DNA from: Candidatus Microgenomates bacterium
GTDB lineage: Bacteria; Patescibacteriota; Microgenomatia; UBA1406; HO2-37-13b
Direction of reading: 5' to 3'
Length of the DNA stretch: 64,000 bases
Assembly: GCA_025449735.1 (NCBI GenBank)
Contig: JANWIV010000001.1
Coordinates: 12,654-76,653 of the forward strand
Shown here: in pieces, positions 2,903-55,392 of the stretch
How positions within the stretch are numbered: position 1 is the first letter of the stretch
Layout: each line of letters starts with the position of its first letter
Position numbers and translations under genes: made by a program
The notes under the pieces: model-generated
Told to the model about the DNA's origin: nothing
What the model saw: the letters and a program-made list of their open reading frames with translations, nothing else
Databases searched by the model: none

Positions 2903-4026
2903 AAATAGGAGTTGATTTATCAATGCTGGTATATGCGGGCAGTGGTGTTGCCACCTACACCCTTAACTTTGCTCAAGAGTTATTGAAGCGTCAGTCAAGC
3001 AATAATTATGTATTTTTTTATTCTTCTCTAAGAAAACCTAAAAACTTCACTTATTTGAATGTCTTAAGAGATTTCGGAGCGAATATTAAAGAGTTACCGC
3101 TACCAACGAGTGCCATCAGGTTCCTCTGGAATAAGCATTCGCTTCTGCCTGTTGAAGCTTTAATTGGCAAAGTCGATTTTTATCATTCCTCTGACTATTT
3201 GAGGCCACCACTATTGCCAGGGACTAAAGGAATAACTACAATTCATGACCTAACTTGGAAGCTTTTTCCACAGTATCATACCGAGGACGTTATTCGCCAT
3301 CATGAACGCAAGCTAGAAAGAACTATCAAGTATCAGGATATAATAATTGTTGATTCTCAAAATACCGAGCACGACCTGCTTAAACTTTATCCAATGATTG
3401 ATGAAAAAAAAGTTCATATCATATATCTTGGCATAGATGATCGCTTTCAGAAAGTTAGTGATACAAAAAAAATTGCCTCAGTACTTTCCAAATACTCAAT
3501 ACCAAATACTAAATACTTGCTCTACGTTGGCGCTATTGAGCCAAGGAAAAATCTACCAGTCGCCATTAATGTGTACAATGAATTATTGAAAGATAAAAAA
3601 TATTCCGACTATCATTTTGTCATTGCTGGTCGAGCCGGTTGGAAAAATGAATCAGTATATCAATTAGTCAAAGAATTGAACCTTGAAGATAGAATCCATT
3701 TTATCGGTTTTGTCGAAGATATTGACCTACCTACTTTATACTCTGGCGCCAGTGTCTTTATTTATTTGAGTTTATATGAGGGATTTGGTCTTCCACCACT
3801 GGAGGCGGCCGCTTGTGGCACACCTAGTCTAATATATAGAAACTCTTCCCTCGCTGAATCTTTTCCAAATGAATACCCTTTTGCTGAGAAAGGAAATGAA
3901 TTGAAGACTCTAATAAATTTAATTGAAAATCCAGAAAGAATCAAACTTTCTTTTGTCACAAAATATTCCTGGAAGAATTACGTAAATAATTTCCTTGCGG
4001 TTCTTAGTCAATTCCAATCTCTTTAA
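2899..4026 (+). CDS. Glycosyltransferase family 4 (GT-B fold)
   Basis: 375 aa. YEGFGLPPLEAAACGTPSLIYRNSSLAE block. ATGA overlap with the upstream GT4. Confidence 0.8.
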   Translation: MKIGVDLSMLVYAGSGVATYTLNFAQELLKRQSSNNYVFFYSSLRKPKNFTYLNVLRDFGANIKELPLPTSAIRFLWNKHSLLPVEALIGKVDFYHSSDYLRPPLLPGTKGITTIHDLTWKLFPQYHTEDVIRHHERKLERTIKYQDIIIVDSQNTEHDLLKLYPMIDEKKVHIIYLGIDDRFQKVSDTKKIASVLSKYSIPNTKYLLYVGAIEPRKNLPVAINVYNELLKDKKYSDYHFVIAGRAGWKNESVYQLVKELNLEDRIHFIGFVEDIDLPTLYSGASVFIYLSLYEGFGLPPLEAAACGTPSLIYRNSSLAESFPNEYPFAEKGNELKTLINLIENPERIKLSFVTKYSWKNYVNNFLAVLSQFQSL

Positions 4027-6217
4027 AGGCGGCACTCAATTTCCTATTGTCTAGTGAAAGACCTATTTCTACTGGGGAATATTGATTCTCAAACTCGAAT
4101 CGTAAATGATGGATAGTTTTTTTATTATATGAAGGTTGGATCTTGTGGCGATAAGTTAAAAACTCCTCCTCCAAATCATCTTCTCCTATTAAAATTTCAT
4201 CCATGTATATTTTGACGTGCTGAGGTTTTTCTAATGTCCGCGCCGTATAAGTAAGCGTAGTAGGTGACGATTTAGAAATAAGCCTAATGGTTGTCACTTT
4301 TGCATTTGCCCAACGACCCTCTGGTTCCGATACATCCCAACCCTCTAAGAGCAACATATCCTCGCAACAATTTGAATTAAAATTAATCCTAGAATAATCT
4401 GTGTTACTAGTTGTAAGGCAATTGTCGCTAATACAAACATTCCCTAAACGGTAAAAGCTGTTTTCCCAAACAATATTTTCTAAATGAATCCTAGCAGGAC
4501 TTGTTAGCATATCTTTGGATTGTAAAATCAAGCTAGTTTCTGTTGGTACATTAAAAAATATTTGATTCGAAGTATAAACTGTACGTAGCTTTGGATATAA
4601 AAAGTATTCCAACCAGATATCGCGCCAATAATTAATTTTGCCACTATAAAAACCATCTAGAAAAATTGGGCCGGATATATTTGTATTTTTGCTTAATTCT
4701 GAAATTGATATTAAATCACGACCAACGATTTTAGATTCCCTAATAAATCGTTTGTTCATTAATACACCGTTATAAATCACAAGTAATAACAGAGAAGTCA
4801 ACAGCAAGAACTTAAATTTTTTTAATTTGTTGAGTATTGAAACAAGGCCAATCGATAAAAAAATTATTAAAATTGGTAGTGAAAAAGTGATTGTCCGGTT
4901 ATAAACAAAGAAGTTTGGAGCAAATATTGTGCTCCAAAAAATAAAAATACCATAAATAATAACAATACCAAAAGTCATTACTTTCATTTTTGAGTTTTTA
5001 ATACCAAAACAAAAAATTATTAAGGTTAAAATGCTCAAAATAATTGATAAAAATAATGATAATGGGGGGTAGTTATGCATGCTATGAAACCCGAAAAATT
5101 CGAATGGGTAAGCAAAAGGAGTTTGTTCACGAAACAAAGCCCATCCAATTGGTTTACCAATATTACTCGCCTGCGCTATATCTAATTTAATCGCATGAAA
5201 AATAGCTGGAACGGAAATAATAAAAGCGGTTGATAATATTTTTAACAAGGATTCAATAAATCTAAAGTAACGTTGGTGCAAAATAAAAGTTACACAAATA
5301 TAAAAAACTAATGGAAAAATTATAAAAATACCACCTTCATGATATGATAAAAATACAGAAGCAATTATTATTCCTATTAATATTTCATTGACACTTTTAT
5401 AAGTTTTATCTGTTGATAATAATTTAAAATGAGCAATTACAAATACGTACAAATAGCTCTGCAGCAGCCAAAAAAAAACTTGACCTGTGAAATTATGGTA
5501 AAGCATATATAACAGATCAGCATTAAACGCTGTCATGAAAGCGATAATCAAAGCACCATAATGACTAGGCCGGTAGAATAAACTAAATAGGATGTACCCT
5601 AGCGGGATAGTCAGAGCAAAAATAATCACTGGGAAAATATAAGCAATTTGATAACCCTGAAGTGAGAGTAGTGATTCAAAAAAAGCAATGACAGCAGGAC
5701 TTCCCCAACGAAATCCGGAAACAATCATATTCATTATTCCAGTCGGATCATCGTTTACTTTTTCTGGTTTAATTAATAAATTATCAGCAATCGACCTCCC
5801 AACTAGATAATCTGGTACAGAAGCATATACCAAGGCATCAGTATTGCCAAGTGATACTGAAGTCAAAAAACGCGCATGTCTAAGCGGGGCAAGATTAATA
5901 AAAATACTAGTCAGAATAACAATAAACAGAAGACCATCGATTAAATAATTGATCTTCAATCTATTATTTTTGAAAAGATAGCTATAAATTGTTGTCAATG
6001 TGAGCAATACAAAAATCACTGGCGTCACATATTTTAAAGGAATACCAACCAGGCTAAGAATTGTTAAGAAAACACTTAAAAAAACAACAAGGGTCGCTGG
6101 CGAGAGCCAAAGGGAAAATTTGCTTAAATTTTTAGGTAAAATTAATGTTGTAATCCCGAATCCAAGGAAAAAAAGACTGAAGTAAAGGGCCCCAGTATAA
6201 AATATAAGTTCAACCAT
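4004..6217 (-). CDS. Polytopic membrane protein, paralog family A, with C-terminal GW..E..RW/DNR.L module (putative GT-C-like glycosyltransferase)
   Basis: 737 aa, mostly hydrophobic helices. Motifs LGNTDALVYASVPDYL and FRWGS are shared with 6220-8019 and 15184-17388. C-terminal soluble tail EGWDVSEPEGRW...DNRKLSAAF. Confidence 0.6.
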   Translation of the reverse strand: MVELIFYTGALYFSLFFLGFGITTLILPKNLSKFSLWLSPATLVVFLSVFLTILSLVGIPLKYVTPVIFVLLTLTTIYSYLFKNNRLKINYLIDGLLFIVILTSIFINLAPLRHARFLTSVSLGNTDALVYASVPDYLVGRSIADNLLIKPEKVNDDPTGIMNMIVSGFRWGSPAVIAFFESLLSLQGYQIAYIFPVIIFALTIPLGYILFSLFYRPSHYGALIIAFMTAFNADLLYMLYHNFTGQVFFWLLQSYLYVFVIAHFKLLSTDKTYKSVNEILIGIIIASVFLSYHEGGIFIIFPLVFYICVTFILHQRYFRFIESLLKILSTAFIISVPAIFHAIKLDIAQASNIGKPIGWALFREQTPFAYPFEFFGFHSMHNYPPLSLFLSIILSILTLIIFCFGIKNSKMKVMTFGIVIIYGIFIFWSTIFAPNFFVYNRTITFSLPILIIFLSIGLVSILNKLKKFKFLLLTSLLLLVIYNGVLMNKRFIRESKIVGRDLISISELSKNTNISGPIFLDGFYSGKINYWRDIWLEYFLYPKLRTVYTSNQIFFNVPTETSLILQSKDMLTSPARIHLENIVWENSFYRLGNVCISDNCLTTSNTDYSRINFNSNCCEDMLLLEGWDVSEPEGRWANAKVTTIRLISKSSPTTLTYTARTLEKPQHVKIYMDEILIGEDDLEEEFLTYRHKIQPSYNKKTIHHLRFEFENQYSPVEIGLSLDNRKLSAAFKEIGID

Positions 6218-8024: not shown

Positions 8025-10211
8025 TTACTTTTTAATACTCAGCTTTGAAAAAAATACGGCTAGATTTCGATTATCTTGATTATCTTTATATATGTTCGAC
8101 GGCCTAACATTTTTTTCAAAAATAAATGTAATTCTATTTACGCCTACTTTTAAATTTTGCTGTAAGCTAAAATGATATTTCTTTCTCTCTTTATCAAAAT
8201 TTAAATTATATGTGGGGAGACCATTGATATTGATCGTGGCTTGTTGATTATCAACGATGGTATTGGCTTCAAAATCGAGATTAATTCCAGCCTTGCGATT
8301 GGTCTTAAAAAAAATCGTCGCTACCTTATCAAGAGTCCATCGACCTTCGGGTTCGTAGGGTGCCCATCCGTAACCAAAATAAAACTGTCGCTGACTGCTC
8401 GATAATTCATCTAGGTAAAATTCCTGTCGTTTTATCATCCTATTGTACAGACTATAACCGTTATCATTTATTGACAACTCATATCCAAGCGAAATCAGTA
8501 TGTCGTTTATAGCTTCCGAATATGGCTCTTTTTGCTTTAGCACGATATTTTCCAATCCAAAAAATTCGATTGAATCAAGCATCTTATCTCTATCTAAAGT
8601 CAGATTCGATTGACTACTAGGATCAATCAGCTGAGCTAGATAACCAATAAAAGCGTCATTGCGATAATAGTCAAATACGGCTGGGTTCAATCTACCCGCA
8701 TAGACACTAAACTTTGGTTTTTTGTATATTAATTGTGTTCGTAGTGATGAAACAGCATTAAAATCACCAATGTATTGCAACCCGTCTCTTATGACAAAAG
8801 GGATCTCCATAACTGGTCCCGTCGGAGAACTTTCTAAACGATCGTATATTTTTTGTGGAATTGGTTGGAGCACTTGTCCAAAAGATGCCGTATAAGATTG
8901 GTCGATTAAAAAAATGAAAATTGCCAGAATACAAAGAGTGAAATATGTTAGTCTATCCTTAACTTTCTTATCTGCGAAGTCCTGGGCTAATAAGGCAGTC
9001 ACTATCGTCATAAGAAAGATCGCAGGGACAATAAACCGGGCCGGACTCCTTGCTAGCTGAACGTATGGAATACTATTTAGAATCTTAAAGGGCAATACTA
9101 TAAAAGTTTCATGACCGAAAATATGTAACTTTGGTCCCAGTGTCAGAATCCAAAAGCAGAGGATGACAAATAACATTGGATTGATTTTTCTTTTTATTTT
9201 AAGACTGATCTTTTTATTGAAGAAAATAACGTATAGTACCCCTAACAAGATTATTATTCCAGGATAAACTAAATTTTCAAAAGCCGGTCTTAAAGCCAAA
9301 ATTGATGACATATACTCAAGAAATTTGCCAAATACTAATCCCGTAGTTGCTGGAGTGAAAATTCCAATTAAGTCTGATGAAAATTGAATACTGTCTTTGG
9401 AAAAATGAAAGTCGATACCCTGACTTAACAAGAGGCTTCGGTAAACCTTAATAATCCATGGGTAAAGCAATATTAAGCCAAGAAATAGAATAATGAGTAA
9501 GTATTGGTATCGGCTCTTGATGAAACTTGTCAATACATTTTTGTTTGAGATTAAATAATAGCTTAGAAAAAAAGACACCATCAGTGCGAGCATCACTGTG
9601 AAATACAGATTCGTAAGAACTAATACTGCCACACTAATCGTTAGTCCAAAACTATTGATTACAATGAACTTTTTAGTTTTACTCCTGAGAACACTAATAA
9701 AAAAGAATGCTATCGCTGGAAATAAATACAAAGCTGTGTAGGTAGGATGTCCTAACCTGGCGACAACGAAAGGAGAGTAGCCATATACCAAACTCAAGAC
9801 ATAAGAGATGCCGCGCCTTATCTCAAATTGTCTCAACAATAGATACATAAAGGCACAACTGGCTACGATACCAAACATTACTATTATAGTAAAGGCATCA
9901 TGGACTGAAAAGAAAGGGCGCAGAAAAAGGAAATAAACTCCATTAATGGGTGCCACATCCTCAAGGGCAAAATTCCAACCAAATGGAAAAAGCAAGGGAG
10001 CTTCGTTAAACGGGTTACGAAGTGAAAGAATATTAAGTCTTACCGTTTCGGCCACATACTCGTACACTGGCCACTCTCCAAAAACCACTAATGTATTTGG
10101 TACTTTGAAAATTGAATAGTGCCAAATATTGAAATTAAAAATGTAGTTTAATAGTGTGTAACTGAGAAGTATTAAGAAAGGGATAGAAACTTTTTTTTTC
10201 AAAAAATTCAT
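8025..10211 (-). CDS. Polytopic membrane protein, paralog family B, with C-terminal GW..E..RW/DNR.L module (putative GT-C-like glycosyltransferase)
   Basis: 728 aa. NPFNEAPLLFPFGWNFALEDVAPINGVYFLFLRPF near the N-terminus, MEIPFVIRDGLQYIGD late in the protein, and tail GYGWAPYEPEGRW...DNRNLAVFF. Confidence 0.6.
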   Translation of the reverse strand: MNFLKKKVSIPFLILLSYTLLNYIFNFNIWHYSIFKVPNTLVVFGEWPVYEYVAETVRLNILSLRNPFNEAPLLFPFGWNFALEDVAPINGVYFLFLRPFFSVHDAFTIIVMFGIVASCAFMYLLLRQFEIRRGISYVLSLVYGYSPFVVARLGHPTYTALYLFPAIAFFFISVLRSKTKKFIVINSFGLTISVAVLVLTNLYFTVMLALMVSFFLSYYLISNKNVLTSFIKSRYQYLLIILFLGLILLYPWIIKVYRSLLLSQGIDFHFSKDSIQFSSDLIGIFTPATTGLVFGKFLEYMSSILALRPAFENLVYPGIIILLGVLYVIFFNKKISLKIKRKINPMLFVILCFWILTLGPKLHIFGHETFIVLPFKILNSIPYVQLARSPARFIVPAIFLMTIVTALLAQDFADKKVKDRLTYFTLCILAIFIFLIDQSYTASFGQVLQPIPQKIYDRLESSPTGPVMEIPFVIRDGLQYIGDFNAVSSLRTQLIYKKPKFSVYAGRLNPAVFDYYRNDAFIGYLAQLIDPSSQSNLTLDRDKMLDSIEFFGLENIVLKQKEPYSEAINDILISLGYELSINDNGYSLYNRMIKRQEFYLDELSSSQRQFYFGYGWAPYEPEGRWTLDKVATIFFKTNRKAGINLDFEANTIVDNQQATININGLPTYNLNFDKERKKYHFSLQQNLKVGVNRITFIFEKNVRPSNIYKDNQDNRNLAVFFSKLSIKK

Positions 10212-10214
10212 ATG

Positions 10215-10931
10215 TCAATTATAGCGCTTCATTTCAAAAAAAAGACGCAAATCACCAACAATTTTTTCACGGATTAAATCAAGGATATTATAATTCGAAG
10301 TTCCCCAAATTCTTGGATAATGAGATACTGGCACCTCAGCGAATGTAGCTCCGGATATTTGAAGTTTTTTTACGAGCTCCGGCAAAATTGATGAATCAGT
10401 ACTATCTAATTTTATTTTTGCAAGCCTCGACTTTCTAATTAGCCTGAAATCGCAATCGACATCGCGGACTGGAAGCTGAAGAATTGTTTTGCTAAATTTA
10501 GCATACAGATTACCTAAGAGAACTCGAATAAAAGCATCTCTTCTGGATTTTTTATATCCATTAACGACATCGACATTAGTCTTCTGCTGTTTTTCTACTA
10601 GGTGCTCCAAATCAGTTTCTAAATGGTACTGAGCGTCGCCATCAGTATAAAAAATCCATTTCTTATTGGCATTTGCAAAACCGTGTTTTATGACCGCATA
10701 ACCTTCCTGATTGCGAGATCTATCAACTATCTTTAGATTTGGATAAATAGACTTCATCTCTTTGATTCTTTGAGTAGTTTTATCCTGGGACCTGCCGCCG
10801 ATAATAGCAATTACCTGCAGATTATCTGTCATTCGTCGTCCGATGCTATATGCCAAGTGAATTTGTCGAGATACAGTTCCTTCATCGTTTAAAAAGGGAA
10901 AAAAAATAGATAAGCTTTCAAGTTTTTTCAT
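10215..10931 (-). CDS. Glycosyltransferase family 2, DPM1/polyprenyl-phosphate sugar synthase-like, soluble form
   Basis: 238 aa. LSIFFPFLNDEG start and YTDGDAQY DxD-type motif. No C-terminal TM helices. Confidence 0.65.
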   Translation of the reverse strand: MKKLESLSIFFPFLNDEGTVSRQIHLAYSIGRRMTDNLQVIAIIGGRSQDKTTQRIKEMKSIYPNLKIVDRSRNQEGYAVIKHGFANANKKWIFYTDGDAQYHLETDLEHLVEKQQKTNVDVVNGYKKSRRDAFIRVLLGNLYAKFSKTILQLPVRDVDCDFRLIRKSRLAKIKLDSTDSSILPELVKKLQISGATFAEVPVSHYPRIWGTSNYNILDLIREKIVGDLRLFFEMKRYN

Positions 10932-12627: not shown

Positions 12628-14415
12628 TCAGTTATTATTGTTAGCATCAACTCTTTGCCATAATGAGTAGCCATTATCCCTCATTATAAGTGTAAAGTTG
12701 AGATGTTTAAGAATGGACTCTGAATCCAAACTATACTTTTGGTAATCTCTTAAAATAGCATAGCTTATATTTTTAAATTCGAGACTTTCTTCCGCTTTGT
12801 CAAAATCAATTTCGTTTAATATTTTTGCTCGGTCCGTTGTTTTTACGTCTATTAATCTGCCAAGTGGACCAAATAAAGCATCGTTTTGAATAGTTGAGAA
12901 AGCAACCTCTGGAACTCTCCCGGCATATAAACTAAATATCGAATGTCCATGCAAGCTCATTACCCGAGTGGACCAAACGCTATTAGCAAAACCAAAATTT
13001 TTAATTCCGTCGCGAACAGTAAACGGTATTTCGAGGAGCGGTCCTTCCTGATGATGCAGTAATAAAGAGTATATTTTGGTGGGCAAAACAATTGTTTCAA
13101 CGGGAGCCGGTTTTACTGATTGATCAATAAGTACAGCAGCTAACAGCAATAAAGCTATAGTAATTTTTTTTAACCGGGTAGTTTTTTTTGTTAGATATGA
13201 TAGTACATACGCTAAAATAATTGAAAGTAGGAAAATTACCGGCGCAATAAATCTACCCGGAGCTCTTGCCATTTGAACAAATGGCAATCGGTATAAAAAT
13301 TGATATGGAAGATCAATAAACGTGGTTTTGCCAATAAATCTTAGGAATGGGCCTAATGTAAAAATGTAAAGAAATATTGAACTAGCAAAAATAGCCTTTA
13401 AAAAAAGGGGCAACTTATTTCTAATCTTAAGATACAAAATGCTTGTGCTAATTAATGCAACTCCGAGGTATGAATAAATTTCAAACCGGGGACGAAAACT
13501 CAATACATCTGACAACGGCAAGATGATGGAAGCATAAAAAGGATTGCGGACTGGCCAAAGTATACTAATCAGATCGGCTGAAAGCAAAACACTGTCAGTA
13601 ACTGGCCGAGCTTCCGCATAACCGTTAAAGTAAAGTGATTCGATAACTTTTACAACCCAAGGTAATAATAACAAGCAAGAGAACCAGACAGCCCAAACAA
13701 TATGTCTATAATTTCCTTTAACGATAGTTATAATTTTCTTTCTTTCGAAGACAAGTCCTATTGTCGTAACTAGTCCAATCATCAACCCGATCATAATCGT
13801 AAAATATAAATTTGTTAGTGGGCAAAGGGCCAGATTTACTCCAAGCAAACTCGAATACAAAAATTTTATCGACGGTCTCTTTTCTTTTGAAAGTAATATA
13901 AAAAATAAGGCCGGTAATGAAAAAAGATAAAGCGCTACATAAGTGGGATGCCCCCAGATTCGATACGAAACAAATGGAGTGAAACCGTAAACCGCTCCTG
14001 TGATAAATGACACTAATCGATCGTGATCAAGTACACGAGCCAACAAATACATACTAAAACTGGATAAAATAACACTCAGTATTACAATTAGCATAAATGC
14101 TTGATGTATTGAAAGAAACGGTCGCAATAATAAAAAGTAAAAACCATTAATCGGAGCGACATCGTCTGGGGCAAAATTCCATCCATAAGGGTTCAGTACT
14201 TCAGGTATTTCGGAGAAAGGATTTTTTAGAGAAATAATATTTTGATATACAGTCTCAGCAACAAATTCATAGACATGACTTTCCCCTTGAGCCGTTAGTA
14301 TGTCAGCTGGATCTTGATAAATAACCTGTTGCCAAATTTGACCGTAGAAAATAAAACTAATAAGTAAATATCCAAGGGTAACAATTAATATTGGGAACCA
14401 ATTAATTTTTTTCAT
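12628..14415 (-). CDS. Polytopic membrane protein, paralog family B, tail-less member
   Basis: NPFSEIPEVLNPYGWNFAPDDVAPINGFYFLLLRPF and LLEIPFTVRDGIKNFG. It ends after DNGYSLWQR, where paralogs continue into the C-terminal module. The track start at 14421 is TTG, so I prefer ATG 14415 (MKKINWFP). Confidence 0.6.
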   Translation of the reverse strand: MKKINWFPILIVTLGYLLISFIFYGQIWQQVIYQDPADILTAQGESHVYEFVAETVYQNIISLKNPFSEIPEVLNPYGWNFAPDDVAPINGFYFLLLRPFLSIHQAFMLIVILSVILSSFSMYLLARVLDHDRLVSFITGAVYGFTPFVSYRIWGHPTYVALYLFSLPALFFILLSKEKRPSIKFLYSSLLGVNLALCPLTNLYFTIMIGLMIGLVTTIGLVFERKKIITIVKGNYRHIVWAVWFSCLLLLPWVVKVIESLYFNGYAEARPVTDSVLLSADLISILWPVRNPFYASIILPLSDVLSFRPRFEIYSYLGVALISTSILYLKIRNKLPLFLKAIFASSIFLYIFTLGPFLRFIGKTTFIDLPYQFLYRLPFVQMARAPGRFIAPVIFLLSIILAYVLSYLTKKTTRLKKITIALLLLAAVLIDQSVKPAPVETIVLPTKIYSLLLHHQEGPLLEIPFTVRDGIKNFGFANSVWSTRVMSLHGHSIFSLYAGRVPEVAFSTIQNDALFGPLGRLIDVKTTDRAKILNEIDFDKAEESLEFKNISYAILRDYQKYSLDSESILKHLNFTLIMRDNGYSLWQRVDANNNN

Positions 14416-29700: not shown

Positions 29701-30501
29701 ATGAAAATAGGCAATAAAAATCAAATTAGTATTCTTTTAAGAAAGCGCATTCTTGATTTTGCGGTGAAGACCGAGAAAGCCCATGTCCATATTGGTTCTT
29801 GCCTGTCAGCTATCGATATTCTAATTGAAACACTGGTATTTCAGATGGGGAGTCGTGACCGTTTTATTCTTTCCAAAGGTCATGCTTCGCTTGCGCTTTA
29901 TGTCGTCTTTAATTATTTAAAAAAAATATCCAACAAAGAGCTCGCTTCTTATTTTGAAGAGGGGACTCATTTTGGAATTCATACTCCGGGATCAATGCCG
30001 GATTTGATTCCACTGGCCACTGGTAGTCTTGGCCATGGCCTTTCTTTCGCTGCCGGAGTCGCCCTTGGCTACAAAATGCAGGATCAAAAAACAAAACGAC
30101 ACGTCTATGTGATGATCTCAGATGGCGAATGCAATGAGGGGGCGGTATGGGAAGCAGCGCAATTTGCCGTCGCCATAAGAATTGACAATCTGACGGTAAT
30201 CATCGACAAAAATAGAGTTCAAGCCCTTGGTAGAAATAAGGAGGTATTAGGCGATGGTGCCAGTGTTGCCAAATGGCGCGCCTTTGGATTCAATGTGGGG
30301 ACATGCAATGGCCACTCTTTTGCTGATTTGTCTGCCGGCTTTTCTGCTCTCAATAAACTTAAAAATAATCGGCCATCAGTCTTAATCTGCAAAACAATCA
30401 GAGGCCGAGGAATCAAATCAATTGAAAATAAAGTGGTATCGAATTACACCGCAGTCACTAAAGAAGTTTATGAGGAAGCAATTTTAAATTTGAAATCTTA
30501 G
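29701..30501 (+). CDS. Split transketolase, N-terminal (ThDP-binding) subunit, copy 1
   Basis: GHASLALY, GSLGHGL and ThDP motif SDGECNEGAVWEAAQFA...NLTVIIDKN. ATG at 29701 (the track starts at GTG 29695). Confidence 0.8.
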   Translation: MKIGNKNQISILLRKRILDFAVKTEKAHVHIGSCLSAIDILIETLVFQMGSRDRFILSKGHASLALYVVFNYLKKISNKELASYFEEGTHFGIHTPGSMPDLIPLATGSLGHGLSFAAGVALGYKMQDQKTKRHVYVMISDGECNEGAVWEAAQFAVAIRIDNLTVIIDKNRVQALGRNKEVLGDGASVAKWRAFGFNVGTCNGHSFADLSAGFSALNKLKNNRPSVLICKTIRGRGIKSIENKVVSNYTAVTKEVYEEAILNLKS

Positions 30502-34591: not shown

Positions 34592-35665
34592 ATGAAAATA
34601 GAGCAGTGGCAGATAACTCTTCAAAGTTCTACTTGGCCAAAAGTCGATTCAAGTAATAATGCAGAAGTGCTTTCGAACTTTTCGCTATCATCTCCTGAGG
34701 CATCTAGACTGATGCAACCGTTGCGATCAATTTTACTGGAAGATCAAAGTGGTTTTTATCGACTGCTATTAGAATCAAATGTTTTGAGTCTCAGATTAGG
34801 AACTGCCGATGTAGAGTTAGATTATGAAACGTATAATTTTCGTGGAGAACTAATTCAAAGGACAGCCACACTTACTTTTGACGAGATCAGTAAACATACT
34901 TATGAAGCTAATGGTTTTACTCAACCTGATGTCTCAAATCCAGAAGTGGCGCTCTTTCCAAAATATGATCTTGTTCGACAAGCTACTGAAGCCAATAGAT
35001 CAGATCAAGTAAAAGTAGTGGAGAATATCAGCGATGGCCCAATAGGCTTACTTGTCAATGGCATTGGCAAATATAACCCAATTACACTAGAGCATTTGGG
35101 TTTTGATGAAATACCGCTTACCGATCTCGAAGCCCAAACAATCGCAATCTCAAACCAAATGAGAGCATATCATGATCGTATAGGGACTATAGAGACAATT
35201 TTGTTTGTTGCTTCAAGAGATAGAGTTCATCGAACTGGTGTTGAAAATTTTTCAGATTATGGATTTTCGGCTCTACGCCCTTATCTTAATTCTGATGGCA
35301 GGCATGCGCTACATTTAAAATCTCTGTATGATTTGTCAAAGTCGATAAATATACCTTTAGATACATTTTACAGATCTGGGATAAAACACACTCGTTTTAC
35401 CTTTATGCCAACAATACCATTATTAAATGCTTGCCATGCTCTTAAAAAAGAAGTGTTGGTGCACAAAGCTCGCTATTCATCGATTAGTTATCTTAAATTA
35501 CAACCCTTTGAAGAAATGTTGCAAAGAGCTGAATCTTATCTTGAGTCAACTTCGGAAGCTATCGTTCGGGAAAAAATACTAGAGCTGGCCGGCGAGGTAA
35601 AACCGGATTTTACATCATCAGTAAGAGAAGCTAATCCATGGTTAGCAGAATACGGGATAACCTAA
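34592..35665 (+). CDS. Hypothetical protein
   Basis: 357 aa ORF with its own promoter-like TGaTATAAT 7 nt upstream. No recognisable motifs. Confidence 0.5.
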   Translation: MKIEQWQITLQSSTWPKVDSSNNAEVLSNFSLSSPEASRLMQPLRSILLEDQSGFYRLLLESNVLSLRLGTADVELDYETYNFRGELIQRTATLTFDEISKHTYEANGFTQPDVSNPEVALFPKYDLVRQATEANRSDQVKVVENISDGPIGLLVNGIGKYNPITLEHLGFDEIPLTDLEAQTIAISNQMRAYHDRIGTIETILFVASRDRVHRTGVENFSDYGFSALRPYLNSDGRHALHLKSLYDLSKSINIPLDTFYRSGIKHTRFTFMPTIPLLNACHALKKEVLVHKARYSSISYLKLQPFEEMLQRAESYLESTSEAIVREKILELAGEVKPDFTSSVREANPWLAEYGIT

Positions 35666-35669
35666 GCCT

Positions 35670-35756
35670 CTAACCCTTCGGGCTTCGGCCGTGAGCCCTC
35701 GGCGTGAGCGTAAGTCGAACGCTCAGCCGAACGGTTAATTGTTACTCGTACCCTTT
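35670..35756. repeat. REP-like repeat family R2, copy with a 50-nt GC-rich internal insertion
   Basis: CTAACCCTTCGGG (35670-35682) and GGTTAATTGTTACTCGtACCCTTT (35733-35756) match the reverse complement of the 54374 copy. The segment 35683-35732 between them is GC-rich and palindromic. Confidence 0.65.
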
Positions 35757-35888
35757 GATTTGAAATAAATTCTGTCAAATTTCCACCTCAACATTTACAA
35801 TTAAACGTTTAAATGTAAATGTTTAACTCAAAAAATGCAGAAATTAACTTAAGAGTACCCAACTCGAGGCTATTCTAAGTTAAATTTG

Positions 35889-35903: not shown

Positions 35904-36329
35904 ATGACTGAACAATCACCCAATACTCCCATCACGGTGTCATTGCCAGATTTGATTTCAAAAGCATTAGTCAAATTTAAGGGTAAGGAAACGGTTGTTG
36001 ACGAATTTGGTAATGAAAGATTCTATAGTAGCGATCATGCGGCTGATGATGTATTAGATGAGCTTCTCGTAGATCATAGACTCGATATTAAAGATGTCCT
36101 CTTTGAAATAATTGGGCAAACAACTAAGGAAGCTCGTGATTTAGAAGGTACAAGCTTTGATGGGTTTGATAATTATGAGAATCTATTTCGGATATTAGCT
36201 TCAACTATAATTTATTATGAAATGAGAGATCAAGACGCCAGCATTATTGCTGAAGACGAGAGACGTGATGAAGCTGATTTGGTAAAATATCAAAAAGCTC
36301 AAGATAAGAAAAGCGTATTTGAATTGTAA
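35904..36329 (+). CDS. Hypothetical acidic protein
   Basis: 141 aa, D/E-rich. TGaTATAAT lies 6 nt upstream of the ATG. Confidence 0.45.
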   Translation: MTEQSPNTPITVSLPDLISKALVKFKGKETVVDEFGNERFYSSDHAADDVLDELLVDHRLDIKDVLFEIIGQTTKEARDLEGTSFDGFDNYENLFRILASTIIYYEMRDQDASIIAEDERRDEADLVKYQKAQDKKSVFEL

Positions 36330-38208: not shown

Positions 38209-39026
38209 GATTTTTTATTAAAACTACTCAATAATTCGGCTTTTTTTTCTTCACTGATTGAATAATAGTGAGATTCAAATTTGCCTTCAAAAAAAGGAAT
38301 GCCGCGACCTTTGATGGTTTTGGCAATAATAATATTTGGTTTATCTGACTGGCTATTTTGCGCCTCTGTCATGGCTTTTTTGAGTGATTGCAAATCATGA
38401 CCATCAGCCTCCTGTACTGCCCACCCGAATGATTCCAATTTTTCCTTAATTGGCTCAACAGAAATCACCTCTTCAGTTTTACCAAAACCCTGCAAGCCAT
38501 TTTTGTCAATTATGGCAATGACATTGTTTAGTTTATGCTGGCTAGCAAATAAAAATGCCTCCCAGTTGCTGCCCTCATCTAGCTCGCCATCAGACATCAA
38601 GACAAATACTTTATTTGGTCGTTTGTCTCTCTTAGCTGATAATGCCAAACCCAAGCCAACTGGCAAACCATGCCCAAGAGATCCAGTTGATAATTCCACC
38701 CCAGAGACCACTCTTGAGGCGTGCTCGGGCAAAAGACCACCATTAGTATCATATTGCGACAATAGCTTTTTATCAAAAAAACCACGCAAGGCAAGGGTCG
38801 CATAAAGAGAAGCGCCGGCATGACCTTTGGAAAGAATAAAGTAGTCACGGTTTATGTCTTCTGGATTCTTGGGGTCAATATTCATCACCTCAAAATAAAG
38901 CGCGGTTAAAATCTCGACAATCCCCAATGAACAACCAATATGATGCGACTCTAGGGGAACAAGCATTTTGATAATTTCGTAGCGGATTTGGTGTGCGATT
39001 GCATCAAGTTTATTATCTATTGCCAT
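38205..39026 (-). CDS. Split transketolase, N-terminal subunit, copy 2
   Basis: GHAGASLY, GSLGHGLP and MSDGELDEGSNWEAFLFA...NVIAIIDKNG. Confidence 0.8.
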   Translation of the reverse strand: MAIDNKLDAIAHQIRYEIIKMLVPLESHHIGCSLGIVEILTALYFEVMNIDPKNPEDINRDYFILSKGHAGASLYATLALRGFFDKKLLSQYDTNGGLLPEHASRVVSGVELSTGSLGHGLPVGLGLALSAKRDKRPNKVFVLMSDGELDEGSNWEAFLFASQHKLNNVIAIIDKNGLQGFGKTEEVISVEPIKEKLESFGWAVQEADGHDLQSLKKAMTEAQNSQSDKPNIIIAKTIKGRGIPFFEGKFESHYYSISEEKKAELLSSFNKKS

Positions 39027-52147: not shown

Positions 52148-53479
52148 TTATTCCGTAGAGACCCCGGTCTCAGAATTGTAATAAAATTTTCCAAGTATAC
52201 CATCAAAATCATTAAGCGTGCTTTCCCAACGATGATTTTCTCTGTTGTATTCAGCTGAAGATAAAAAGTACCCGCGATCTAGCGCATCTCGACAATGATT
52301 GGCTATAGATTCTCCAGCAGATTTCATTTCAACATAAAACAAATTAAATGCTGCCTCTGTCCACCAATTTCCTTTGGGGAAATCCTTATCGTAACGAATT
52401 AGCTCCGTCCAATTAACTGCCTCCTCGAACTGTCCTGTTTCCCGACGATCCTGAATAGCTGCAAAAACACTTTCACGCGCAAACTCTACATATTGTTCTC
52501 TAATATCGCGCTCCCATGCTGGCATTGGGATTGATTCTTCATTGAAATTTTCGGTGTCAATGCCAAGAGCTTCAAGGTCGGCTTCAGTATTTGCATCAGT
52601 TAACATCAGACCCAAAAACATTCGCAGTGTCAGGCGTTCGGAACCATCACTGGCTCCAAATTCTTTCGCCAAGCGAACTGCTTCTTCAATTCCCATTTTA
52701 ACTTCTTCACCACGGCGCATTGCTTTTCTCTGATCAACGACCTTTTGGATGACTTCTATCGCACCTGTCAAACTCTCTTGTGTTTGGGTACCTGACTCAA
52801 GAAAGTTTCTATTCAAAAAGTCTCCCATTCGGTTGGCAATTGTGTCATATTCCTGACCGGTGCGATGATCAGCCCACATAGCAATTCGATATTCTCCAGA
52901 GTCAAGCATTGCGTAATCAACATTGAAACGATCCAGCTCATGCCCCAGCGCCACGACGATATTAAATGCCCCTTCAGAAACTTGACCGCGAATAAGCCTC
53001 ATTCCTGTAACTTCATTTATTACTCCTTGATTTCGCTCTTCAACGTTAGCGCTTGGCGCATCATTTTTGTACCAACCCGCTTCATCCCATACCCGACGCC
53101 CCGCATGACTCACCAAACCACCATCAAGTAGCGCTTGAATGTCAATATTAGTAGCGGTTCGTTCGTTGACTTGTTGTGCAAAATGAATTGCGGCTCGAGT
53201 CATCATCCATGTATGATTTTGAATACCACTCCATTCCTTACTGTCACGCCAATCAGTTAGCCCCCAGAGCCCAGCACCTTCCTGAACCAAAGAGACTCCT
53301 TCGACTTGTCGACCGCCAGCGGCTTTATCTTCTGGGGTTTTAAAAGAGGTGACAGTTTGTGGTTCAGAGATTTTTCCTCGCAAAACGTCAAAAACTTCTG
53401 GAGAAGGGGAGAGTTCATTAATTGTAGGAATCTCTGATCGGTCTGGGGTCATGTTTGGTCTAACATTTTCTGCAGTCAT
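52148..53479 (-). CDS. Hypothetical protein, weak paralog of 25031-26113 with altered HD-like signature
   Basis: 443 aa. NHTWMMTRAAIHF...LVSHAGRR sits where the paralog has H...HD. AMWADHRTG..DTIANRMGDFL resembles LWYTDAIAAGDTLRTVDGRIDEL. Confidence 0.4.
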   Translation of the reverse strand: MTAENVRPNMTPDRSEIPTINELSPSPEVFDVLRGKISEPQTVTSFKTPEDKAAGGRQVEGVSLVQEGAGLWGLTDWRDSKEWSGIQNHTWMMTRAAIHFAQQVNERTATNIDIQALLDGGLVSHAGRRVWDEAGWYKNDAPSANVEERNQGVINEVTGMRLIRGQVSEGAFNIVVALGHELDRFNVDYAMLDSGEYRIAMWADHRTGQEYDTIANRMGDFLNRNFLESGTQTQESLTGAIEVIQKVVDQRKAMRRGEEVKMGIEEAVRLAKEFGASDGSERLTLRMFLGLMLTDANTEADLEALGIDTENFNEESIPMPAWERDIREQYVEFARESVFAAIQDRRETGQFEEAVNWTELIRYDKDFPKGNWWTEAAFNLFYVEMKSAGESIANHCRDALDRGYFLSSAEYNRENHRWESTLNDFDGILGKFYYNSETGVSTE

Positions 53480-53642
53480 AAAATTATTTAAGAATTAATA
53501 AGTAATGCGGATTATAGCAATAGTCCAAACCAAAAGTCAATATTACAAAGTAATATTTTAATTATCAAACCGTAGTATTATTACTTTTTTGTATTACCAT
53601 AACAATCTAAATGCTATAAATATATTTTTCTCCAACCCTCTT

Positions 53643-53676
53643 CCAACCCTTCGGGTTGAAGTGAGCTTGAACCCTT
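53643..53676. repeat. REP-like repeat family R2, diverged copy
   Basis: ccaacccttcgggttgaagtgagcttgaaccctt, with hairpin caaccc-ttc-gggttg. It shares AACCCTTCGGGTT and GAACCCTT blocks with the copies at 35670 and 54374. Confidence 0.6.
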
Positions 53677-53686
53677 CGTTTTTTAA

Positions 53687-54349
53687 TCAAAAAAGCAAAT
53701 CCTTTATTTCTTTAAGCCTTCGTTGGTAATCAACTTGGTCAAATACAAACTGCTTATATTTTTCAGGTTTCTTAAAATATTCCATGATATCTCTAGTTTC
53801 AATATAGTTGTATTGAAAACCACCAATATAGGTCCCAAAAGAGCTTCTTGGTTCATTAGCTAATTTTTCAATCTCGATTAAATATGAAGTAACGTGATTT
53901 AAATGTATATAACGAGATGTATGAATAAACTGTTCAACTGACTCAATCCGAACCGCCTTGAATGGATGGATAAAAAGACTTCCTTGCCGCTCATTCTTGA
54001 TATTGAAATATTTAGCAAAACTATTTTGAAAGTTTGAGATAAATTGTGAAATTCCACCTGTTTTCAGTTGTTTTAGCAAAAAATGCCAATGATTAGGCAT
54101 AAGTGAAAATGCGTGTATTTCGAGTAGTTGATCTTCAACGCTTCTTTTCCTTAGTATTTCATGCTGAACATCTTGACTTGAGTTCAGAAACGAAGATAAA
54201 CTGAAAGAGTTTGAATAACGATAATAATCCATTATTTCTATTGCTTTTTTCACGTTTCTTTTTCCATCAAAACTTATCTCCCTCCCAACCGTCTTATTAA
54301 ATACATGATAAAATTCCCCATTAGCAAATATTGTTTTTCTACCTAACAT
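53687..54349 (-). CDS. IS200/IS605-type Y1 HUH transposase homolog, REP-associated tyrosine transposase (RAYT)-like
   Basis: GEFYHVFNKTVGRE..F start, HUH motif MPNHWHFLL, GSLF..PFKAV, and catalytic Tyr region SRYIHLNHV. Palindromic repeats flank it on both sides. Confidence 0.75.
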   Translation of the reverse strand: MLGRKTIFANGEFYHVFNKTVGREISFDGKRNVKKAIEIMDYYRYSNSFSLSSFLNSSQDVQHEILRKRSVEDQLLEIHAFSLMPNHWHFLLKQLKTGGISQFISNFQNSFAKYFNIKNERQGSLFIHPFKAVRIESVEQFIHTSRYIHLNHVTSYLIEIEKLANEPRSSFGTYIGGFQYNYIETRDIMEYFKKPEKYKQFVFDQVDYQRRLKEIKDLLF

Positions 54350-54355
54350 ATGAAT

Positions 54356-54364
54356 AATATAGCA
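54356..54364 (-). promoter_or_regulatory. Extended -10 TGcTATATT, 6 nt upstream of the RAYT ATG (54349)
   Basis: Minus-strand reading ttgctatattattcatATG. It directly abuts the REP hairpin at 54374-54424. Confidence 0.4.
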
Positions 54365-54373
54365 AATAAATTA

Positions 54374-54424
54374 AAGGGTTCGAGTAACAATTAACCCGAA
54401 GGGTTAGAAGTTACTCGAACCCTT
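54374..54424. repeat. REP-like repeat family R2, full palindromic copy
   Basis: aagggttcgagtaac / aattaacccgaagggttagaa / gttactcgaaccctt. Perfect 15-bp arms, and the 21-nt loop contains a nested aaccc-gaa-gggtt hairpin. Confidence 0.75.
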
Positions 54425-54483
54425 TCTCTTTAGTTACATAACAAGTCAATAAAACTGTTCAAATTTATAATAATTTTAAAATG

Positions 54484-54501: not shown

Positions 54502-55392
54502 ATGACATTTAGCCCTCAACAAATCGCTATCTGCATGATCACCCAATACCCCAATTGGTATTCGGGGGAGGCAAGGGGACTAAAAAACATCGACAAGGTC
54601 CGCGGTGACTTGGCACTAGAGTCAATTGCCCTGTCAGTCAAAAAAGGATATCATACGGTCATTGGCTATGATCCTGACTCCAGCGAATTTAACCAAGCCC
54701 TCGAAGCCATTGGTGATGTCATTCTTGTCAGAAGAGAAACCAAAAAAAGCTCACCTAGCAAACGTCAGATCATTGAAAAAGCTACCGAACTTCCTCAAAT
54801 AAAGGTAATTGTGTTGACTGAACCCGAAAAAGTTTCTTTTGTTAAAGATTGTATTGAAGAAACAGTAAAGCCAATTCTTGACGGCAGCGCTGACATTGTC
54901 ATTCCCAAAAGAGACGAAATTCTATTTAAAGATACCTACCCCGACTATATGTATCAGTCTGAGAAAGAGGGGATTGCGCTTTATAATGAGGAGCTCCGGG
55001 CCCATGGACTTATTGATAAAAATAGTGAAGATTTTGATATGTTTTTTGGACCACGGGTACTAGCTAATAACCAAGAAATAGTTGACTTATTCTTGAAGGA
55101 GTACTTGTTAGAAATCGAAAAAATTTCTCTTCCTAAGATTTATTTTGATGCCGATCAACTTTCTAACACTCAATTTTTCCCAGTGGTCTTGGCCTTAAAA
55201 CATAAGAACAAGGTAAAAACAATCACAGTCCCATTTCACTATCCAGAGAGTCAAAAACAAAATGAGACGATTCAACAAAAGGATTTTTTTATGGAAAAAC
55301 GACGCACTCAAAAACTAGGTCTAATTATTGAGTTAATGCATTTCGTCAGCTTTCTTGAAAAAAACCAATCGAGTCGAGTCGAACTAGTTTAA
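54502..55392 (+). CDS. Hypothetical protein, possible GT-A-fold glycosyltransferase
   Basis: 296 aa. VIVLTEPEK...DGSADIVIPKR resembles a nucleotide-sugar-binding acidic loop. The assignment is weak. Confidence 0.35.
   Translation: MTFSPQQIAICMITQYPNWYSGEARGLKNIDKVRGDLALESIALSVKKGYHTVIGYDPDSSEFNQALEAIGDVILVRRETKKSSPSKRQIIEKATELPQIKVIVLTEPEKVSFVKDCIEETVKPILDGSADIVIPKRDEILFKDTYPDYMYQSEKEGIALYNEELRAHGLIDKNSEDFDMFFGPRVLANNQEIVDLFLKEYLLEIEKISLPKIYFDADQLSNTQFFPVVLALKHKNKVKTITVPFHYPESQKQNETIQQKDFFMEKRRTQKLGLIIELMHFVSFLEKNQSSRVELV

Follow-up and report, generated by a model that had tools for sequence, protein, structure and literature searches.

The 64,000-nucleotide (nt) stretch of Candidatus Microgenomates DNA analysed here, called the window, contains a gene of a Y1 HUH endonuclease that lies between inverted hairpin repeats and resembles the REP-associated tyrosine transposases (RAYTs; REP, repetitive extragenic palindrome). 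The window harbours one ordinary member of a widespread family, and the family-level pattern is more interesting than the single locus. The family is a large, previously undescribed branch, in bacteria of the candidate phyla radiation (CPR), of an already known type of system. We favour, with moderate confidence, the reading that the gene and its repeats form a module similar to TIRtrons and REPtrons, in which a RAYT-type single-stranded DNA (ssDNA) endonuclease gene of the Group 1 or subclass 2.1 kind is accompanied by its own cognate, co-evolving and weakly proliferative hairpin repeats.

Protein and repeat units of the window locus

The window protein possesses the complete Y1 HUH catalytic set and fold. 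Its HUH motif reads NHWHFLL (His87 and His89), and the catalytic Tyr147 is located in SRYIHLNHV. A preliminary description of the window, made from the sequence, had reported this signature, and the open reading frame (ORF), the motifs and the score against the Pfam model Y1_Tnp (PF01797; 29.6 bits, above the cutoff of 23) agree with it. None of 33 aligned homologs deviates at H87, H89 or Y147. The AlphaFold (AF2) model of the protein, with a predicted local distance difference test score (pLDDT) of 91.5, was compared to the PDB using Foldseek. The best match is E. coli TnpA-REP in complex with a REP hairpin (4ER8, E = 4e-7), followed by the TnpA proteins of IS608 and ISDra2 (2VJV and 2XM3 among the matches, which range from E = 4e-7 to 5e-5). 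In a search of the PDB by sequence, ISDra2 TnpA is the sole match (E = 0.02). The C-terminal ~70 amino acids (aa) form a helical extension. Y1_Tnp is the only Pfam domain matched by the protein even at E <= 1, with no DnaA_C or helix-turn-helix (HTH) similarity, and the C-terminal 72 aa modelled separately (pLDDT 81) have no fold match in the PDB. A role of the C-terminal domain as an HTH or DnaA-box binder is thus unsupported.

The gene had also been likened to single-gene RAYTs, and it is indeed a stand-alone, class-2 Y1 HUH gene with no tnpB. All 33 aligned homologs match the NCBIfam RAYT model REP_Tyr_transpos with scores below its cutoff (best E = 7e-16), and the window protein reaches 38.8 bits against the NCBIfam RAYT equivalog NF047646, the cutoff of which is 80. 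The IS200 model is matched by only one of the 33 (E = 0.0078). Profile alignment using hhalign gives E = 1.3e-14 with a plasmid protein of the subclass-2.1 type (motifs NHVH, WE and YIELNP), and E = 3.9e-4 with E. coli RayT. The aligned proteins are 220-225 aa long, with the consensus motifs NHYH, G.LFQN.FK and YIHLNP. The proline of the last motif is replaced by histidine (YIHLNH) in the window protein and its closest relatives, and glutamine occurs in none. At the level of sequence, the signature motifs and profile comparison group the family with TnpAY1 subclass 2.1 (Group 1 RAYTs of Bertels et al.; TIRYT/TIRtron), and neither with IS200 nor with the canonical RAYTs associated with GTAG-type REPs.

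The upstream repeat unit, read in the sense of the gene, is composed of an outer arm AAGGGTTCGAGTAAC (54424-54410), TTCT, a hairpin H with the sequence AACCC-TTC-GGGTT (54405-54393), AATT, and a gene-proximal arm GTTACTCGAACCCTT (54388-54374), which we call the box. The whole unit is a 51-nt palindrome with perfect 15-base-pair (bp) arms around the nested AACCC-GAA-GGGTT hairpin. As ssDNA, it folds with -21 kcal/mol (z = -7.0), and none of 200 shuffled sequences folds as well. The downstream unit begins, again in gene sense, with a box complement, box', AAGGGTTCAAG (53676-53666), and continues through a spacer into the hairpin AACCC-GAA-GGGTT (53657-53645); a partial extra copy of the motif, CCAACCCT, lies beside it at 53632-53639. 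This half unit alone folds weakly. Nevertheless, segments 53640-53676 and 54374-54410 are complementary at 28 of 37 positions (76%), and the inverted flank-to-flank alignment has z = 5.7 relative to shuffles. A covariance model of the unit scores 21.3 bits (E = 2.7e-4) on 53642-53678, a copy that is itself in the training set. The perfect palindrome on the right and its diverged, oppositely oriented copy on the left had both been recognized before, and both descriptions hold. A chance origin of the repeats is rejected by the shuffles.

Between the upstream unit and the start codon, an extended -10-like element ends so close to the ATG (Table 1) that the mRNA is therefore expected to be leaderless or nearly leaderless. 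The -35 element is poor in the window copy, and the promoter assignment rests on family statistics and on the -10 element read by eye.

A solo copy of the unit occupies a 238-nt gap between ORFs 34592-35665 and 35904-36329, where it starts 5 nt past the stop codon of the first ORF. It consists of the blocks CTAACCCTTCGGG (35670-35682) and GGTTAATTGTTACTCGTACCCTTT (35733-35756), the second of which is 93% complementary to 54368-54396. The 19-mer CTAACCCTTCGGGTTAATT is expected to occur 0.01 times by chance. The preliminary description had regarded this sequence as a third copy of the palindrome, split by a 50-nt insertion. The copy is genuine and retains both blocks; however, the insertion is 52 nt long, and the copy is a half unit, formed by the hairpin and an arm of the gene-proximal type, rather than a full palindrome. 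The boundaries of the insertion are ambiguous by 2-3 nt, and its GC content (Table 1) compares with 38% in the surrounding window. No further copies of the unit were found in the 64-kb window by mismatch searches or by the covariance model with filters off. A metagenome scan with AATTGTTACTCGWACCCTT produced a sole match, by chance, in an unrelated NhaA contig.

Table 1 Positions of the RAYT-like gene, its repeat units and the solo copy in the window
Feature	Position	Strand	Properties
Y1 HUH endonuclease/transposase-like gene	53687..54349	-	220 aa; RAYT-like, TnpAY1 class 2, subclass-2.1-like
Upstream full palindromic unit	54374..54424	-	sequence; fold z = -7; covariance model hits 54372-54408 and 54390-54426
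Short 5' region	54350..54373	-	extended -10-like TGcTATATT ending 6 nt before ATG, read by eye
Downstream half unit, inverted orientation	53640..53676	-	complementarity; z = 5.7; covariance model hit 53642-53678
Solo half unit (hairpin 5' arm and loop, spacer and box GTTACTCGTACCCTT)	35670..35756	+	hairpin split by insertion
GC-rich palindromic insertion in solo hairpin	35683..35734	+	52 nt; 67% GC; termini CTTCGGCCGTGAG...CTCAGCCGAAC

The GC-rich insertion itself appears to belong to a second family of small palindromes that become nested in the loops of hairpins. Elements with the termini CTTCGGCCGTGAG...CTCAGCCGAAY around a variable apical hairpin are also present in the Microgenomates loci L080 (~8470-8555, minus strand) and L021 (~4361-4390, plus strand), and also in L039 (~4342, minus strand) and L072 (~15431). 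The L080 element follows CCGACCCCTGGGG and thus lies, like the one in the window, past the loop of another hairpin/box-like sequence; the L021 element is located within the loop of another palindrome. The 52-nt element has no match in Rfam. Directly downstream of the solo copy, the same intergenic region contains an AT-rich imperfect palindrome (35763-35850) with overlapping 49-nt arms that are 71% complementary.

The hairpin and box module across the family

A search of 5.8 billion proteins identified 1598 relatives of the window protein. The best 120 of the 1598 are about 215-240 aa long and 45-70% identical to it, and the few named among these 120 come from Levybacteria, Paceibacterota and Patescibacteria and bear the annotation 'transposase'. 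Among 1.84 billion representatives clustered at 50% identity, a profile search produced 901 matches at E <= 1e-30 and 25,659 at E <= 1e-3. The exact window protein is not on record in the protein searches. At least 568 loci in GTDB species representatives encode the family, the closest relative of the window protein among them being 50% identical. The family is therefore not rare in CPR bacteria. The named GTDB loci belong nearly all to the Microgenomates group of CPR (Levy-, Davies-, Curtiss-, Woese-, Roizman-, Blackburn-, Gottesman- and Shapirobacteria). The CPR host suggested earlier is in agreement with the adjoining 296-aa gene, which among named relatives is closest to those of Roizmanbacteria (62% identity) and Levybacteria. 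Plasmids provided four weak, core-only matches, and phages none. Many metagenome-assembled genome (MAG) records with family members are titled 'uncultured Gammaproteobacteria bacterium isolate binchicken_... / SRP...', which is probably placeholder taxonomy and no evidence for the family in Proteobacteria.

Flanks of 140 nt on each side were surveyed in 83 non-redundant homologous genes. Inverted similarity between the upstream and downstream flanks exceeds z = 4 in 71% of the genes, with a median of z = 6.7. Similarity in direct orientation is present in 48%, because many flanks are complete palindromes. The recurrent module, listed for 111 flanks, comprises the hairpin H and, across a spacer, a box in which the sequence of the 5' arm of H and of part of its loop recurs. 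The stem is 5-9 bp long, the loop has 3 nt in 62 of 89 units, and the spacer spans 7-12 nt. The box always faces the gene, so that the order is H-spacer-box, gene, box'-spacer-H. The full unit, box'-spacer-H-spacer-box, has the layout of the 51-nt palindrome of the window and recurs in the homologs.

The hairpins vary from locus to locus, with 27 different arm cores, of which CACCT and CACCC are the commonest; AACCC, present in the window, was found in 6. The two arms and the box change in concert. For the arms, 88% of alignment cells are paired compared to 71% in shuffles, and double-sided changes occur in all 7 of 7 pairs. The loop-closing pair is C-G in 30 units and U-A in 28. Shifting the pairing partner by one or more columns reduces pairing to 34-49%. 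The nucleotides that follow the box copy the loop, with identities of 0.47, 0.38 and 0.73 versus 0.27, 0.24 and 0.46 in shuffles. The hairpins carry no GT[AG]G at their 5' foot. In the window, TTCT or AATT is found there, and an alignment of 58 units shows no conserved position 5' of the stem.

Across the family, the sequence of the upstream box is TTGACACC. The tetranucleotide TTGA is present in 23 of 51 upstream units and in none of 38 downstream units; in 20 of the 51, the distance from the end of the box to the ATG is 26-27 nt, and TAAAnT occupies the -10 position. These features indicate that the upstream unit overlaps the promoter of the gene, and that the mRNA is nearly leaderless.

Two loci depart from the common layout. 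Upstream of the family member in Curtissbacteria contig JACPEV010000001.1 (L039, ~9850-9990), there are approximately three copies of a ~23-nt repeat with GACACCTTCAA, and downstream (~10655-10740) approximately four copies of GGTGGATGAAC in the inverted sense, forming tandem iterons instead of a hairpin. The short motif as such, in addition to the hairpin, may be recognized. In Levyibacteriota contig JACPLG010000008.1 (L001), a second Y1 paralog of 215 aa and 37% identity is accompanied by TACCTTCCCACATGnnAAGTGGGAA hairpins in direct orientation (3179-3916). Further copies of TACCTTCCCACATGnnAAGTGGGAA are located inside the coding sequence of the paralog (3397-3421) and in the ornithine carbamoyltransferase gene (1460-1484). 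These intragenic hairpins resemble the intragenic REPs of TnpAY1 subclass 2.4.

Locus history, proposed mechanism and alternatives

Family genes are present in 1-4 copies per MAG, and JACPDA01 has up to 4 of them in a 35-kb segment. Two copies from one genome share 40-52% identity, no more than those from different genomes do (median 45%), and every copy is accompanied by a hairpin of its own, such as GATTACACC, TCAACCC and CCGATC in one Daviesbacteria contig. No conserved downstream partner or tnpB accompanies the genes, the downstream ORFs being unrelated genes of housekeeping type. The ortholog in locus L005 (70% identical) has the same neighbours on both sides as the window gene; the neighbour gene is 54% identical, so the RAYT-like gene is the more conserved. 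The upstream unit of L005 is orthologous to that of the window, and a coordinated change from AACCC to AACAC affects its box and outer arm as well as both arms of the hairpin. In L091, the two neighbour genes are adjacent, with a 48-nt spacer and no RAYT. Locus L089 also contains no RAYT; it has an unrelated gene and a solo box'-H unit, GGGGGTTGcaaggggaatCAACCCcgaGGGTTG (3752-3791), at the position of the downstream unit of the window, just upstream of a homolog of the 443-aa gene that neighbours the window RAYT. Other genes are present at the corresponding site in L092 and L094, and the contigs of L088 and L094 end or differ before the junction. The empty-site relatives are too diverged for DNA alignment of the insertion boundaries (40-53% protein identity; 48-nt spacer in L091). 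The locus shared with L005 and the empty or solo sites elsewhere therefore point to an old insertion or deletion of the module in a conserved neighbourhood, followed by vertical inheritance.

Palindromes of other kinds were observed at two of these loci. A perfect GC-rich palindrome with 14-bp arms, ACAGCTTTCGCGCG-GTC-CGCGCGAAAGCTGT, lies at ~4901-4935 of L089. Upstream of a 68%-identical homolog of the 296-aa gene, L094 (~205-275) has no RAYT but a different long palindrome with the tandem repeat ATATACAGTTAAATGGTTAACTGTTAAATGGTTAACTGTATAT, and a small divergent gene.

Solo units occur at low density. Cognate sites outside the modules number 18 in 1.26 Mb of homologous loci, and none was found with shuffled queries. 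A sequence-independent structural scan of 1.34 Mb recovered 61 units beside family genes and 41 matches elsewhere, about 14 of which are solos of the family type; the same scan of shuffled DNA gave 12 matches. The 64-kb window has one solo, and the related loci, which add up to ~1.3 Mb, have about one in every 70-100 kb. No clusters resembling bacterial interspersed mosaic elements (BIMEs) were seen in the window or in the homologous loci.

We propose that the enzyme of this TIRtron- or REPtron-like module binds the hairpin on ssDNA, for example at replication forks. It would cut and rejoin the strand beside the hairpin via Tyr147, with the box as a cleavage or selection site. The full box'-H-box palindrome would be the minimal unit that is occasionally excised, copied or inserted, and the gene itself would be essentially sessile, passing on by vertical inheritance and being gained or lost only occasionally. 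The overlap of the upstream box with the promoter of the gene makes it probable that binding at the upstream unit autoregulates expression. We infer hairpin binding, cutting by Tyr147 near the box, mobilization of the unit and autoregulation from the anatomy of the module and the biochemistry of TnpA-REP and IS608 (PMC3479197, PMC8266576).

Several observations weigh against this reading. About 29% of the 83 surveyed genes have no detectable inverted flanks. Since the detection step demanded at least 5 paired inner bases, independent evidence of covariation in the hairpin comes only from the types of compensatory pairs and from the two pairs farther out. The coupling between box and hairpin is imperfect, as the downstream box and hairpin of L005 are of different types. 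The low number of solos means that any mobility is at most weak or ancient, and genes since lost may have left some of them behind. The window protein departs from the family signature (NHWH, FI and YIHLNH), and a sigma-70 consensus scan upstream of its gene called no promoter. Neither biochemical activity nor transposition is known to have been demonstrated for a protein of subclass 2.1 or Group 1.

A less likely alternative is that the palindromes are purely regulatory. A domesticated nuclease gene would then be preceded by an operator or promoter and followed by an RNA or termination hairpin; the solos would be scars of deleted paralogs, and the repeats would not be mobile. In favour of this reading, the upstream box falls on a TTGACA that resembles a -35 element and keeps a fixed distance from the ATG, solos are rare, the solo of L089 sits exactly where the downstream unit of the window does, as fits a deletion scar, and the third copy in the window matches for ~6 nt past the box, toward the expected gene side. 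However, the downstream unit has neither TTGACA nor a T-tract, yet keeps its hairpin and box in inverted orientation. Furthermore, intergenic DNA contains some solos that form complete palindromic units and have no remnant of a gene, a tblastn search detected no pseudogene near the solo of the window, and the known TnpA-REP relatives cleave such hairpins (PMC3479197, PMC8266576).

A more far-reaching and rather doubtful possibility is that the CPR family recognizes its substrate in a manner distinct among Y1 enzymes, through a box that echoes the hairpin arm and with no guide tetranucleotide, and that the box'-H-box unit is a complete minimal mobile element of, in the window, 51 nt. If so, hairpin-directed cutting could explain the nested insertions of palindromes into hairpin loops, such as that of the 52-nt GC-rich element. 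The gene may have been kept in these reduced genomes for a host function in ssDNA processing, as would be suggested by the several old paralogs in genomes of ~1 Mb, each of which co-evolves with a hairpin of its own.

That the gene is an autonomous IS200-like insertion sequence (IS), consisting of tnpA alone with subterminal hairpins and moving together with its ends, is improbable. The Y1_Tnp domain, the hairpins at both ends, the several copies in some MAGs, up to four of them in JACPDA01, and the presence or absence of the gene in a conserved neighbourhood are compatible with it, and the family has in common with IS200/IS605 elements (IS608, ISDra2) the HUH/Tyr chemistry and fold, and small hairpins with cleavage sites (putative in the CPR family) about 10-20 nt off the hairpin. 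The layout box'-spacer-H-spacer-box resembles the left and right ends of IS608 sharing one hairpin. Nevertheless, the ends are inverted, unlike the direct ends of IS200/IS605; the tyrosine motif is YxxxN[PH], mostly YxxxNP, instead of YxxxQ; and the protein has 220 aa instead of about 150. Copies within genomes reach 40-52% identity and are never near-identical, the IS200 model touches only 1 of 33 members, and the gene is stable at its locus, where the 70%-identical ortholog is more conserved than its 54%-identical neighbour. The preliminary description had named placement among bona fide IS200/IS605 elements with a tnpB partner as grounds for abandoning the RAYT comparison; Y---Q, a length of ~150 aa, direct ends, near-identical copies and tnpB are all absent.

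A canonical REP/RAYT system of Groups 2/3, with a large genome-wide population of REPs or REPINs outside the 64 kb, is also improbable: the inverted flanking repeats with one dispersed copy and the best structural match, 4ER8, suit the REPtron picture, but the hairpins have no GT[AG]G foot, the protein is below the cutoff of the NCBIfam RAYT equivalog and aligns weakly with E. coli RayT, and one solo per 64 kb, or about one per 70-100 kb in 1.3 Mb, contrasts with tens to hundreds of repeats per genome in Groups 2/3 (PMC5581495). Of the 'classic REP/RAYT arrangement' that had been claimed for the window, the inverted hairpin flanks and the dispersed related copy thus stand, and the classic type does not, given the missing GT[AG]G, the 38.8 bits against a cutoff of 80, the greater proximity to subclass 2.1 and the low copy number in the window and related loci.

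Relation to known systems and context of the window

The TIRtron- or REPtron-like module described here has its closest counterparts in three surveys. Di Nocera et al. (2013, PMC3733652) described RAYT-like genes with inverted repeats at a fixed distance, some self-complementary and forming small repeat families, and named them TIRYT/TIRtron. Most TIRYTs belong to TnpAY1 subclass 2.1 of Quentin et al. (2018, PMC6006769), who reported no REP-like structures there. The subclass signature in their Table 1 is NH[YF]H (or NHVH), FQ (or W[EQ]) and Y[IV]HLNP (or YIELNP), with a median length of 238 aa, and subgroup 2.1.2 is heterogeneous for an HTH-like C-terminal domain (PMC6006769). Flanking 16-mers of Group 1 occur about 12 times per replicon (Bertels et al. 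2017, PMC5581495).

Like these systems, the CPR family has a RAYT-like Y1 protein that is longer than IS200 TnpA and matches the signature, inverted and partly self-complementary repeats at a roughly constant distance from the coding sequence, repeats of low copy number in the loci surveyed, and no tnpB. The number of about 2 divergent copies per genome is also similar, with identities of 49% in the published systems and 40-52% in the CPR family. In contrast, the hosts are CPR/Microgenomates bacteria with ~1-Mb genomes, whereas the literature ties non-IS tnpAY1 genes to large genomes. The module of hairpin and echo box is the rule in the CPR family, unlike in subclass 2.1 of Quentin et al., and the CPR C-terminal domain has no detectable HTH similarity, unlike that of subclass 2.1, which is similar to Bac_DnaA_C, HTH_23 or HTH_28. 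The motif GGGGWSAS of the majority of described terminal inverted repeats (TIRs) of TIRYTs is unmatched: the family has GGGGTGTC or AGGTGTCAA, and the window AAGGGTTCGAG. The box complement of the family is typically (A/G)GGTGTCAA, and GGGGTGTC of L001 differs from GGGGWSAS at one position.

The E. coli REPtron (4ER8; PMC3479197, PMC8266576) is the best structural match and likewise has a single gene between inverted hairpin repeats. By analogy, the CPR enzyme would be expected to bind an ssDNA hairpin and cut beside it. Unlike the E. coli REPtron, the CPR module has no GTAG guide tetranucleotide, no bulged long stem and, in the loci surveyed, no abundant repeats. The window protein exceeds the E. 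coli enzyme in length by 55 aa and matches its profile weakly (E = 3.9e-4). The literature search yielded no paper that connects RAYTs with CPR bacteria.

Group 1, or subclass 2.1, is the largest and least understood RAYT-like branch, with no substrate defined and no adjacent hairpins in earlier surveys. The CPR branch offers a clear candidate substrate, a short hairpin with an echo box, and natural covariation over hundreds of genes, so binding and cleavage specificity are directly testable with oligonucleotides. Several ancient paralogs of a 'selfish-looking' nuclease persist in ultra-small CPR genomes, and every one of them has its cognate repeat. This persistence runs counter to the reported association with large genomes and bears on the domestication of such enzymes.

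The window around the RAYT gene is rich in genes for sugar nucleotides and polysaccharides. It contains no tRNAs, and no RNA family of Rfam reaches the gathering threshold; around both repeat loci, only noise was detected at E <= 10. The neighbours of the RAYT gene, 52148-53479 on the minus strand (443 aa) and 54502-55392 on the plus strand (296 aa), have no Pfam domain. Among 5.8 billion sequences, the 443-aa protein has 21 relatives, all unnamed, and the 296-aa protein 421, mostly unnamed. Two distant matches within the window, a 49-nt inverted match of 78% (29854-29902 and 38801-38849) and a 110-nt direct match of 73% (9877-9986 and 14081-14190), probably reflect conservation between parts of paralogous coding genes (transketolase-like genes and large neighbouring ORFs) and not mobile repeats.

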